This document shows, piece by piece, positions 2,150 to 64,000 of a stretch of DNA of 64,000 nt. Both the position numbers and the translations under genes were made by a program. Within the stretch, counting starts at the first letter, position 1. Every line of letters begins with the position of its first letter. Under the pieces are notes generated by a model, which saw only the letters and a list, made by a program, of their open reading frames with translations, did not search any database and was not told the DNA's origin. The DNA is from Phycisphaerae bacterium (GTDB lineage Bacteria > Planctomycetota > Phycisphaerae > Sedimentisphaerales > UBA12454). Location: contig JBGOWI010000005.1 in NCBI GenBank assembly GCA_041478555.1, forward strand, positions 20,365-84,364, given 5' to 3'.

Positions 2150-2926
2150 TTATCGTCCTTCGCTTAGCCTGTCGGCCTCAAAGTTGTCGAGCTCCTCGAT
2201 ACTGTAGATTTTCTTTTGCGTGGTTTTGTAATCATATTCGAGCCTGACAAAGTGAATGTTGTTTTGCTCGATATAGACATAGCTTGCCCTGTTGTCCTTA
2301 TCTCTCGGCTGGCCTATGGAGCCGACATTTATAATAGCTCTTTCTTCAGGTATTATGGGATAGATATAGTCAAGCTCATCCGGAGTGTAAAAATCAGGGT
2401 CATCGAGAAAAACGCCCGGCAGGTGAGTGTGGCCTATAAAGCAGATGTGCTTAACGCGGTCGAATTGCGAGGTTATTTTTGCCGGTGTGGTATATACGTC
2501 GTCGGGGAAGATATATTCGTTGATAGGTCTTCTTGGTGAGGCGTGCACGAAGTCCAGAATGGCTTTTGCGCCGTTAAGCTCTGTAGAAAGTGTCCATCTC
2601 ATCTGTTGACTTCCGAGATAATTCCAGCGGTTGTGCCGTTTTTTGGGGTCCTGTTCGATTTCGAGCTGACTTCTTGTCCAGAAGCTTGCCCGTTCGGCGC
2701 CGAGGTTGAAATTTGTCGGCTCGTACAGTATCGCATAATCGTGATTGCCCATGACGCAGGCTTGTGTTTTATCTATGACCAGGTCGAGACAGTCCTTCGG
2801 GTCGGGGCCATAACCGATTATGTCGCCGAGGCAGTAAATTGTTTTTATGCCCCTTTTTTCGATGTCCGCCAGCACGGTTGTCAGTGCTTCGAGATTTGAA
2901 TGTATGTCGCTTATTATTGCAAACAT
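2150..2926 (-). CDS. Metallophosphoesterase family protein
   Basis: Motifs SDIHSN, LGDIIGYGP, GNHD, GHTH, INVGSIGQPRD. Confidence 0.9.
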   Translation of the reverse strand: MFAIISDIHSNLEALTTVLADIEKRGIKTIYCLGDIIGYGPDPKDCLDLVIDKTQACVMGNHDYAILYEPTNFNLGAERASFWTRSQLEIEQDPKKRHNRWNYLGSQQMRWTLSTELNGAKAILDFVHASPRRPINEYIFPDDVYTTPAKITSQFDRVKHICFIGHTHLPGVFLDDPDFYTPDELDYIYPIIPEERAIINVGSIGQPRDKDNRASYVYIEQNNIHFVRLEYDYKTTQKKIYSIEELDNFEADRLSEGR

Positions 2927-2957
2927 GCAGTATTCCCGCTGAACTAAACCACTATTT

Positions 2958-3017
2958 GTTCACCCCGTTAGAGAACTTTTTCTTTTTCGGTTTCTTTCGT
3001 TCTCTAACGGGGTTCAC
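2958..3017. mobile_element. Miniature inverted-repeat element (CCCGTTAGAGAAC...GTTCTCTAACGGG) with 6-bp direct repeat GTTCAC
   Basis: gttcac 2958-2963, 13-bp perfect inverted termini bounding 2964-3011, gttcac 3012-3017. Confidence 0.7.
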
Positions 3018-3114
3018 AGTCAGAAATGATACTTATACCAGAAAAATTGCTGTTATTCCAGTATCAAATAAACCTGCGTCAAAGAAGACTTGTGGTATCG
3101 GGACGTGATGGCTG

Positions 3115-3969
3115 TTACTCTTTGGTTCCTTCGAGCCAGTATTCTGACATAATCTGCAAGTCCTTGGTGTCAACAGGGCCGTCGCCGGTCAGGTCGGTGC
3201 CGAGCCGGCAGTTGGCATTTGGGTCACTATAATAGTTATTGGGGTCATTGCAGTTGCAGAGCCAATCTGCAGCTAAAAGAGCAAAATCATGGAAATCGGT
3301 AGTGCAGTCCAGGTTGATATCGCCACCATCAGAGGCATCTTCGCACAGGACAAGTCCGTCAATGGCAAAATAGGACTCGTAAATTATATCACAAAAATCT
3401 GTTACGCTTATTGTCAGGTCATAAGTTCCAGCCTGATTGGCGTCGAAGGTGTATTCAAATCTTTTCCATCCCTTTGTTGAGCCGTAATTATTTACGTCGG
3501 CTACCGATATGTGGATAACTGGTATGCTTAGATTTGGATCTTCTATTAGTATAAGTTTTATTTCTCCATAGTCGTCGAATCGCAGATAATCGCATGTTCC
3601 GAAGAAATAAGCTCCGGTAAGTTTATTTCCGGGGTTTATGGTGATCTGCTGCCATATCTTGGCGTATTGTGGTTCGGGGGAAAAATTACCTGTACTAAGT
3701 GTAAGAAAGTAGTTGCCCTCGTACGGATAAAGTCCAATTTCGGGATCGATCTGCCATTGGGACGGGCTTCCTCCGCTTACCGGATTAGGAACAAAGTGGT
3801 GAACAACAGCAGTGTAGTTTTCATGCTGCCAGCCGGTAGGCGTGTTGAAATCGGGATTCGTATCGAAGAGTTCAAATCTTCCGTTATAAGGTGCAGATAT
3901 GACTTGTGTGGTTAGAAAAACAGAAAGCAGGCTAATGGCACCCCAGAAATGTGCACATTTACAATTCAT
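3115..3969 (-). CDS. Secreted hypothetical protein with C-terminal dockerin-like repeats
   Basis: 284 aa; signal peptide; GDINLDCTTDFHDFALLAADWL and TDLTGDGPVDTKDLQIMSEYWL. Confidence 0.8.
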   Translation of the reverse strand: MNCKCAHFWGAISLLSVFLTTQVISAPYNGRFELFDTNPDFNTPTGWQHENYTAVVHHFVPNPVSGGSPSQWQIDPEIGLYPYEGNYFLTLSTGNFSPEPQYAKIWQQITINPGNKLTGAYFFGTCDYLRFDDYGEIKLILIEDPNLSIPVIHISVADVNNYGSTKGWKRFEYTFDANQAGTYDLTISVTDFCDIIYESYFAIDGLVLCEDASDGGDINLDCTTDFHDFALLAADWLCNCNDPNNYYSDPNANCRLGTDLTGDGPVDTKDLQIMSEYWLEGTKE

Positions 3970-62128: not shown

Positions 62129-62935
62129 TTACAAAAGATTTTGTTTTACATATTTGATGGCGTTGTCAAAGATTGTTCTGCCGTCGGCTCTGGTTTTGTC
62201 ATTCAATCTTGTCCAGTGCGGGTGCTGAGTGTGTCTTACAAATCTTTCAGGATGAGGCATAAGCCCTAATACTCTGCCGGTTGAATCACACAGACCTGCG
62301 ATAGAATCAGTCGAACCGTTGGGATTTATCGGAAATGGGCCGGTATTGCCGTTTTCGTCAACATATCTGAATACAATTCGGCCATCTGCCTTCAGTCTTT
62401 CAAGCACTTCATTATTTTCAAAGACAACCTTTCCTTCGCCGTGAGCTATCGGCAGATAAATTCTTCTGTCAGGGTCGATGAAGATACACTTTCTGCCTGA
62501 AGGTTCAAGATATACCCATCTATCCTCGAATTTACCACTGTCGTTGTACGTGATTGTTATCTGCTGTCTGCCTGAAGGTTCGATTTTACCGAGGATGCCG
62601 GTCTTTACAAGGACCTGAAAACCGTTACAGATGCCCAGGACGATTTTGCCTGATTCTATAAAGGCGTTAAGTCTGTCGGAGAGATGATGAATAATCTGGT
62701 TTGCAAGGATTTTGCCTGCAGCGACGTCGTCGCCGTAACTGAAACCGCCCGGAATGACAAGAATCTGGAAGGTATCGAGAATATCAGGGCTTTCAATGAT
62801 TCTGTTTATATGGATTCTCTGTGCCTGGCAGCCGGCAAGCTCAAGTGCGTATTGCGTCTCCACATCACAATTGATGCCCGCTGCTCTTAAAACCAGTGCG
62901 TTTACCCCGTTAGAAATTTTTCCCTTCTGTATCAT
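62129..62935 (-). CDS. purQ: FGAM synthase glutaminase subunit PurQ; present start codon lies inside an inserted element
   Basis: LRAAGINCD, PGGFSYGD, LGICNGFQ, AHGEG, NPNGS, LMPHPER. Confidence 0.95.
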   Translation of the reverse strand: MIQKGKISNGVNALVLRAAGINCDVETQYALELAGCQAQRIHINRIIESPDILDTFQILVIPGGFSYGDDVAAGKILANQIIHHLSDRLNAFIESGKIVLGICNGFQVLVKTGILGKIEPSGRQQITITYNDSGKFEDRWVYLEPSGRKCIFIDPDRRIYLPIAHGEGKVVFENNEVLERLKADGRIVFRYVDENGNTGPFPINPNGSTDSIAGLCDSTGRVLGLMPHPERFVRHTQHPHWTRLNDKTRADGRTIFDNAIKYVKQNLL

Positions 62936-63006
62936 ATTATTGCCTTGTTAGGAATTTTCCATTTTTATATCACATTCCCCGTTTTAGAATTTCTAACGGG
63001 GTTTAC
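62900..63006. mobile_element. 95-bp inverted-repeat element (CCCGTTAGAAAT...) with GTTTAC direct repeat inserted in the 5' end of purQ
   Basis: gtttac 62900-62905 and 63001-63006; termini cccgttagaaat / atttctaacggg. Confidence 0.8.
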
Positions 63007-63022
63007 CTGTTGTGCCATTTAA

Positions 63023-64000
63023 TCACCATTTCAATGGTTTCTGCCAGGCGTCTTTCAGCTTGTCAATTTCGATATCAATAACTTTTTTGCCTGCAGCATC
63101 TTTAACGATAAATCTTTTCTGTTCGGTTATTTTTCCTATCTGGCCGAAGGGGACGCCGAGCATAAGTTTCGCAAAATCGTTGTAATTTTCAGGCTTGACT
63201 TCCACTATGTATCGCGAACAGGACTCGCTGAATAATTGCGTCGCCGGAGCGGCACAATCAGAGGTTTTTGGTAAGCCCTTAAGGTCGGCGTGGATTCCGA
63301 AGCCGCCTGCAAAGGCCATCTCTGCAAGTGCAACAGCAAGGCCGCCTTCACTGCAATCGTGGCAGCTTATAATAAGACCTGCGTCAATCGCCCTGTGTAT
63401 CTTTTCAGCAGCAGCAGCAGCGGTTTTGATATCTGTTTTTGGGACATTTGCTCCGAGTTGATTTTGAATTTTGTAGTAATGTGAGCCGCCAAGCTCGTTT
63501 TTCGTAAGGCCGACCATAAACAACAGATTACCGGCGGACTTGGCGTCCATTGTTACGCATTTTTTAACGTCATCAACAAGGCCTATTGCGCTTATCAGCA
63601 GCGTTGCAGGTATTGATATTTCCGTGCCGTCATCGCAGAGAAAATTATTGTTCAGCGAGTCTTTACCCGAAATAAATGGTGCACCGAAACCAACGGCGCC
63701 GTCAAAACAGGCCTGGGCAGAGCGGACCAGAGAGCCTAAGGTTTCTTCTTTTTTGCAGTCTGCCCAGCAGAAATTATCCAGCAGTGCGATTCTGTCAGGT
63801 CTTGCGCCGACACAGATGATATTTCTTATCGCTTCGTCAATTCCTGCAAGAGCCATCCAGTATGGGTCTATATCGCCATAGAAAGGATTTAAGCCGCAGC
63901 CGATTGCAATACCTTTGTCAGAATTGGATTTCGGCTGAATTACTGCTGCATCGTTCGGGCCGTCATTAGCGATTCCGCCGAGGGGTTTTACGACCGAGCC
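63023..64000 (-). CDS. purL: FGAM synthase subunit PurL, 3' part (runs off the window)
   Basis: DNFCW, PFISGKDSLNN, HDCSEGGLAVALAEM, LFSES. Confidence 0.95.
   Translation of the reverse strand, partial: GSVVKPLGGIANDGPNDAAVIQPKSNSDKGIAIGCGLNPFYGDIDPYWMALAGIDEAIRNIICVGARPDRIALLDNFCWADCKKEETLGSLVRSAQACFDGAVGFGAPFISGKDSLNNNFLCDDGTEISIPATLLISAIGLVDDVKKCVTMDAKSAGNLLFMVGLTKNELGGSHYYKIQNQLGANVPKTDIKTAAAAAEKIHRAIDAGLIISCHDCSEGGLAVALAEMAFAGGFGIHADLKGLPKTSDCAAPATQLFSESCSRYIVEVKPENYNDFAKLMLGVPFGQIGKITEQKRFIVKDAAGKKVIDIEIDKLKDAWQKPLKW

Follow-up and report, generated by a model that had tools for sequence, protein, structure and literature searches.

REPIN/RAYT and IS200/IS605-type elements are abundant hairpin-forming repeats, and flanking direct repeats are, to our knowledge, not a feature of either system; in REPIN/RAYT, the abundance of the repeats goes with a cognate Y1 transposase gene that they flank. 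Correia elements are an example of MITEs that alter the expression of neighbouring genes, and Tn7 at its attachment site and homing elements insert site-specifically beside conserved genes. In programmed translational bypassing, exemplified by phage T4 gene 60 and the mitochondrial 'byps', a stop codon directly after the take-off codon serves as a criterion. Bacterial MITEs in general have been described as small, non-coding elements with terminal inverted repeats, a target-site duplication and many copies, which can fuse to host ORFs or give them expression signals, and Rickettsia palindromic elements (RPEs), about 150 bp long, as short palindromic repeats that lie in frame in unrelated genes and are translated with the host protein (PMC10969869). 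Here we analyze a 95-bp element at the beginning of purQ in a 64,000-nt stretch of a Phycisphaerae genome (hereafter the window, i.e., the whole stretch of DNA examined), where it has separated the gene from its original start codon and most likely provides a new one.

On the minus strand of the window, the purL stop codon (TGA, 63025–63023) is followed 4 nt later by an ATG (63018–63016) that reads ATG GCA CAA CAG before entering the first of two GTAAAC copies, which flank the element (CCCGTTAGAAAT...ATTTCTAACGGG when read from 63000 to 62906) and agree with each other at 6 of 6 positions (Table 1). The terminal inverted repeat of the element (62904–62918 and 62988–63002) is 15 nt long and 100% complementary, and its interior holds two decayed copies of the element end, which match at 81% and 75% in the order given in the table; the end 12-mer itself occurs only twice in the window against 0.35 occurrences expected, a count that 5 of 100 shuffles reach. 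Translation from ATG 63018 ends at a TAA at 62967–62965, and the purQ frame, which is closed by a second TAA at 62950–62948, stays open from 62947. An ATG at 62935 opens a 268-aa ORF. Every feature named in the original prediction, this ATG included, is present at the coordinates given there. The upstream purL fragment matches positions 416–715 of the 718 in the PurL profile TIGR01736. The product of the purQ ORF scores 200.9 bits against the NCBIfam PurQ model TIGR01737 (cut-off 177.8) in a match that begins at residue 15, its first 10 residues (MIQKGKISNG) being encoded by the element. It finds only itself in this genome, which is estimated to be 98% complete, and its close homologues come from sources named Planctomycetes, Phycisphaerae or Sedimentisphaerales bacterium.

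Table 1. Features of the purL–purQ junction, in window coordinates.
Feature	Coordinates	Strand	Basis or remark
purL, 3' part	63023–64000	minus	open-ended ORF running off the window; NCBIfam TIGR01736 match
Remnant of old purQ start, 17-codon upstream ORF (MAQQVNPVRNSKTGNVI then stop)	62965–63018	minus	sequence and translation
Upstream GTAAAC copy	63001–63006	minus	flanking repeat
95-bp element, conserved termini and composite interior of three decayed units	62906–63000		
Two decayed internal copies of the element end	62943–62958 and 62977–62992	plus	repeat search
AAGG, Shine-Dalgarno-like, inside the element	62943–62946	minus	7 nt upstream of ATG 62935
ATG inside the element, proposed present purQ start codon	62933–62935	minus	first in-frame start after TAA 62950–62948
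Downstream GTAAAC copy, PurQ codons V-N	62900–62905	minus	followed by GCA CTG GTT TTA
purQ as now readable, 268 aa	62129–62935	minus	ORF and TIGR01737; starts MIQKGKISNGVNALVLRAAG

The prediction that an element had interrupted purQ, and that relatives would display a single uninterrupted site, was borne out by comparison of their 5' regions: such a site is present in 36 of 37 relatives (18 of 19 in one set and all 18 in another), and the opposite outcome, in which MIQKGKISNG would be found everywhere, did not occur. The one exception is a genome from another genus (G024), in which a related element of 99 bp occupies this position of purQ. In about half of the relatives, purQ begins M-x-Q/N/D-[VI]-[NKR] a few bases past the purL stop. 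Metagenomes supplied 80 loci that encode relatives of PurQ; 76 of these are readable, 70 of them being uninterrupted and 6 filled, and 4 are unreadable. The ancestral N-terminus anticipated for this gene, MAQQVN, is nearly realized in a 97%-identical PurQ of 262 aa that starts MAQQVT, and another protein starts MAQQIN. The read evidence, which consists of assembled contigs only, includes a contig of 171 nt from DNA run X1 (possibly the source sample of the window) that spans both element junctions with no differences, and the join is therefore found outside this assembly as well; a contig from run X11 (62870–63010) bridges the purQ-side junction only, and RNA runs X19 and X20 have zero cover across the element. 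Along with the multiple copies of its family and the target-site-like repeats described below, these comparisons support a real insertion, in which a mobile element interrupts purQ.

The family was searched with a pattern requiring paired terminal ends within 160 nt, such that its 11-nt ends are common to the copies by construction. This genome of 2.41 Mb holds 25 copies (none with a reversed-pattern control), and 40 relatives hold 0–62 copies each, with copies in 23 of the 40 and 0–1 control matches per genome. When prokaryotes were scanned with a single genome for each species, at least 120 stretches had family copies, and the MAG labels among the matches listed comprise Omnitrophota, many Patescibacteria lineages, Planctomycetota, Nitrospirota, Desulfobacteria, WOR-3, Clostridia, Bdellovibrionales and one Methanosarcinales archaeon; the assignment of the last is by label only, two family copies lying on a contig (L080) titled Methanosarcinales archaeon MAG. 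A viral collection yielded one match.

Of the 124 copies listed, 115 have complementary bases immediately before and after the element, and in 66 the 4 bp outside this closing pair are the same on the two sides, compared with 1 of 124 in a shifted control; within this genome, the flanking repeats are perfect in 21 of 25 copies. The direct repeat is mostly TNNA, and the target reconstructed from 99 copies is R-T-N-N-A-Y (T in 79 and A in 81 of the 99) with no wider signal, i.e., the general target of the family is only a 6-bp RYNNRY-like site. Read by this rule, the upstream GTAAAC at purQ is the 4-bp duplication TAAA with one base of the closing pair. Copies are mostly 44–74 bp in the size range scanned and reach 165 bp in this genome, and many fold as a conserved stem of 12–13 bp with two hairpins that have nothing in common in sequence from one copy to the next. 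Short, non-coding, bounded by terminal inverted repeats and a target-site duplication, present in many copies and facing uninterrupted sites in relatives, the elements have the traits of MITEs, and by analogy we regard the family as MITE-like, behaving like the Rickettsia palindromic elements but with a far wider host range.

At gathering thresholds, Rfam models matched only a 16S fragment in 14 loci with family copies and nothing on the elements, and literature searches (supplements aside) did not find the family described, the matches to two 9-mers being unrelated primers. MAGs are often without insertion sequences, and a search of this genome for a parent transposon found no end pair 300–8000 bp apart with matching flanks. 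When neighbouring genes were compared over the at least 120 cross-phylum loci listed, no gene family was common to more than 9 loci; the largest cluster resembles pilus-assembly ATPases, as we presume from the N-termini. A second copy in the window (48 bp, 2964–3011, or 2958–3017 with its flanks) has GTTCAC on both sides and is intergenic, 38 bases upstream of a minus-strand ORF starting at 2926. Other repeats sharing the core of the end motif occur in genome G000 on contigs C19 (875–992 and 2235–2330), C91 (3690–3972), C71 (2882–3000), C50 (7482–7799) and C90 (8059–8357), and repeats of this sort include tandem 14-nt units and hairpin units of 51–53 bp on at least 10 G000 contigs.

Family copies have a marked relationship to coding sequence. 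Lengths are a multiple of three in 83 of the 124 copies listed (p = 3e-14) and in 18 of the 25 in this genome, and 50 of the 83 multiple-of-three copies lie inside an open frame of at least 120 codons, as opposed to 5 of the 41 with other lengths. Multiple-of-three elements keep 2.91 of 4 possible frames open, compared with 2.16 when shuffled, and these length and frame biases argue that copies are translated rather than removed. Two copies in this genome are exact in-frame inserts, one of 23 residues in a protein that we take, from reading its sequence, to be GH95-like and one of 21 residues in a 1307-aa protein; the former is absent from all 6 orthologues and the latter from 5 of 6, and the G004 orthologue of the 1307-aa protein carries a different insert of 11 residues there. 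This position in the 1307-aa ORF (L152/L165 on G000 contig C17; L166 in G004) is a hot spot, and the G000 ORF has a further 10-residue insert just upstream of the family insert.

Two PurQ relatives (P0002 and P0034) contain another family copy in frame near the C-terminus (...RAPLETRHQRCLT...SLTGQADG...), so purQ has been struck at a second site too. Copies also sit exactly at the prepilin leader cleavage motif, on G000 contigs C1 (43112–43210), C61 (3180–3242) and C71 (14701–14763) as well as in L086, L092, L106 and L136; there, the last codon of the element restores the glycine before F-T-L, and the insert would therefore leave with the leader. The prepilin motif was rejected as the main target of the family, with only 7 of 163 copies located there, as was the notion that all family ends carry an in-frame ATG: of 330 ends, 37 have one in one frame and 40 in the other.

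How PurQ is now translated was approached through the element's own start codon. Beyond the TAA at 62950–62948, ATG 62935 is the first start in the purQ frame and its sole canonical one. In 42 of 106 uninterrupted purQ loci an AAGG lies 4–12 nt before the ATG, at 6–7 nt in 29 of them (control window, 5), so the AAGG and its distance of 7 nt at 62935 match the native ribosome-site spacing of purQ; the match at this ATG is 4 nt only, and a 16S gene, looked for in the assembly, was not found. In all 8 filled loci an ATG lies 27–30 nt upstream of the end of the element. Three metagenome loci contain the same variant at the same purQ site, exactly 95 bp long and 83–88% identical to the window copy, in hosts whose PurQ is 67–72% identical to that of the window and whose silent sites are 36–46% identical; taken together, the four 95-bp copies sit in hosts with PurQ 67–82% identical. 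Over the 30 coding bases of these four copies, only 4 sites vary, all of them at third positions and all synonymous, and thus all four copies encode MIQKGKISNG. The peptide itself is not under strict conservation, as a second variant, found at the purQ site in three loci, differs by amino-acid replacements in the N-terminal codons. An element-type N-terminus appears in 13 of the best-scoring 120 PurQ protein clusters. The non-coding part of the element is likewise 83–88% conserved against the 36–46% of the hosts' silent sites, a difference that plain tolerance does not explain. On these comparisons of sequence, PurQ most likely starts now at ATG 62935, the element most likely supplying both the ribosome-binding site and the start codon, in agreement with the start originally proposed.

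Taken as a whole, the account that we consider probable combines insertion, an element-supplied start and a translational relay, with no removal of the element. As comparison with relatives shows, a family member inserted into TAAA within purQ codons 5–6 (GTA AAC), and the gene was thereby cut off from its original start 4 nt past the purL stop. PurQ would then be translated from ATG 62935 with the aid of the element's AAGG, beginning MIQKGKISNG and continuing as the ancestral protein from VNALVL onward. For ribosomes that have finished purL, ATG 63018 is probably still the point of entry, and translation of the 17-codon remnant from there may melt the 15-bp terminal stem; these ribosomes would stop 29 nt before the new ATG and could reinitiate there, this relay being the weakest step of the account. 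A remnant ORF of 12–27 codons from the old ATG is present in all 8 filled loci, its stop overlapping the new ATG in 2, which suggests a termination-reinitiation relay from purL. Of the two routes that had been envisaged for toleration of the insertion, reinitiation thus fits the filled loci, and removal at the DNA or RNA level went unsupported. With the upstream ORF ending at 62965 and the purQ frame open only from 62947, the two do not overlap, and a simple frameshift therefore cannot join them. In the predicted mRNA fold (−35.6 kcal/mol, z = −2.1) the termini form a 15-bp stem, with the AAGG and AUG in the loop and the AAGG unpaired; the predicted stem begins 17 nt past ATG 62935 and, if the model holds, might hinder elongation. 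A promoter scan of the element returned no minus-strand site. The element itself would stay, merely tolerated at the N-terminus, and the N-terminal peptides to be expected are MIQKGKISNGVN... from the element start and MAQQVNALVL... under excision or bypass.

The purQ site has been filled recurrently. In a tree of 117 PurQ loci, the 8 filled loci fall in at least 5 separate places, each beside uninterrupted sisters, and on a tree of 118 PurQ protein clusters the distribution of the 13 filled clusters takes 7 changes, where shuffling gives a mean of 12.6 and never fewer than 10; in one PurQ subclade most members are filled. The flanks of filled loci are native to each lineage. No other full-length copy of the 95-bp variant was found in this genome or in the 40 relatives, and none in 400 other genomes of the class, where scoring was limited to the top 2 candidates of each genome. 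The filling of the same purQ site in at least 5 branches of the PurQ tree is unexplained: recurrent targeted insertion would account for part of it, and part would likewise follow from an ancient filled state that selection has maintained and that has been lost precisely more than once. We offer only tentatively the broader view that the purQ copy, rather than a chance survivor, is a specialized variant that spreads between distant bacteria and lands specifically at the first purQ codons, bringing its ribosome site, start codon and N-terminal peptide along as a portable set, and that it belongs to an undescribed cross-phylum family (with one archaeal MAG contig bearing two copies) of structured palindromes, often three-way junctions, that are built to be harmless in coding sequence through multiple-of-three lengths and few stops in four frames. 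Three further observations concern purQ neighbourhoods: L014 (genome G001) has an extra ORF of ~235 codons between purL and purQ, an occurrence of AAGGCAATA upstream of purQ in G001 was judged a coincidence, and in L204 a gene for a tyrosine recombinase of the phage-integrase family (2219–3241) lies just downstream of the filled purQ.

The same distribution bears on whether history ran in the opposite direction, with the filled state old and the uninterrupted alleles arising through repeated precise excision between the flanking repeats. This explanation concerns origin rather than mechanism and is compatible with the account given above, and we consider it unlikely. Short direct repeats around a hairpin are a classic deletion substrate; moreover, the same 95-bp variant occupies the same site in hosts whose PurQ proteins are as little as 67–72% identical, one subclade is mostly filled, and the remnant start is M-x-Q-V-N-like in most of the 8 filled loci (L204 and G024 depart). 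However, the filled state is uncommon and spread out over the PurQ trees (8 of 117 loci; 13 of 118 clusters, with 7 changes), uninterrupted sisters stand beside each filled lineage, and the element copies are far less diverged than the silent sites of their hosts. The perfect repeats at this locus, together with the uninterrupted 97%-identical allele, fit a young insertion.

Excision at the DNA level in part of the population, with the cells concerned supplying PurQ from the old start, is an explanation to which we give little credence. A DNA contig from X11 runs directly from 62900 to 63002 and so leaves out exactly 101 bases, one from X1 leaves out 104, and the uninterrupted 97%-identical allele is a possible sign of excision as a source of functional copies. 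But the skip joints have only 30–31 matching letters on their shorter side at a likeness threshold of 88%, and short-sided joints of this kind often come from other organisms and are not assignable to this strain; the 104-base skip is what a relative lacking one codon would give, and both skips fit co-occurring relatives. The filled form is found without differences in a 171-nt contig, and the coding end of the element is under coding constraint, both of which speak against such excision.

Removal from the mRNA, or a ribosome that takes off at one GTA AAC and lands on the other, would be suggested by the identical two-codon repeats around a strong hairpin, an arrangement that recalls known translational bypass sites. 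As in those systems, matched codons (GTA AAC) flank a structured insert, but here they are a trivial outcome of target duplication. There is no stop right after the take-off codon, the next one being 12 codons on (62967–62965), the multiple-of-three lengths and open-frame bias of the family are what would be expected of translated copies, and no Rfam family matched the elements in the 14 loci searched. We find such removal or skipping scarcely credible, and programmed bypass in particular was rejected on the lack of a stop beside the take-off codon and on the frame constraint of the family. That purQ has instead been inactivated, its open frame being a recent relic, is suggested by the loss of the original start and is highly improbable, given a 268-codon frame that is intact and the only purQ match in a ~98%-complete genome, and an arrangement that has lasted in several lineages, the new codons changing there only synonymously.

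Under the preferred account, in which the inserted element donates the start, the loss of a start codon to selfish DNA is survivable for an essential gene, because the invader brings a replacement. The comparative evidence indicates that the replacement start is translated and kept for long periods, and the same purQ arrangement is present in several only distantly related sediment bacteria. The family resembles the 'selfish DNA in genes' of Rickettsia on a much wider taxonomic scale, reaching candidate-phyla bacteria and, going by its label, at least one archaeal MAG contig. Its inserts matter for annotation: they make false N-termini, split genes and odd loops of 20 residues in sediment and groundwater genomes. 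Repeated insertion at one purQ site also raises a testable question, that of targeting versus selection.

Like the REPIN/RAYT repeats, the family forms hairpins, and genes matching PF01797 (Y1-transposase-like) are present in 39 of 41 relatives; a link to a Y1 transposase was rejected, as PF01797 matches are unrelated to element counts (G012 has 0 elements and 8 matches), and there was no PF01797 match among the genes beside purQ in four filled loci (G000, G024, L194 and L204). A PF01797 gene (~59–60 bits) lies directly downstream of purQ in L004 (2261–3088; G022), L009 (655–1368; G017) and L019 (2803–3567; G012), in all three of which the purQ start is uninterrupted. With Tn7 and homing elements the purQ element has in common that the same element occupies the same place in a conserved gene of divergent hosts, whereas the general target of its family is only the 6-bp site described above.

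The likeness to RPEs lies in the in-frame inserts, here of 21 and 23 residues in two genes, whereas copies of this family are mostly 44–74 bp, have exact 11-nt ends and a 4-bp flanking repeat, and occur in MAGs labelled as many phyla. The purQ copy differs further in being out of frame (95+6 = 101 bases, with in-frame stops) and in acting as a donor of a start codon rather than as an in-frame insert; as the two are set side by side by description only and their host groups differ, we class the family as working like RPEs and not as a member. Unlike MITEs with a parent transposon, it has no same-ended parent detected in this genome, and the interiors of its subfamilies are unrelated while the ends are identical across phyla. 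The donation of a ribosome site and start to an essential gene, recurring at one site, goes beyond the effects of MITEs described in the portions of PMC10969869 that treat them. With its unexplained attachment to the purQ start and its unusually wide distribution, the purQ element belongs to a known kind, the in-gene palindromic MITE.
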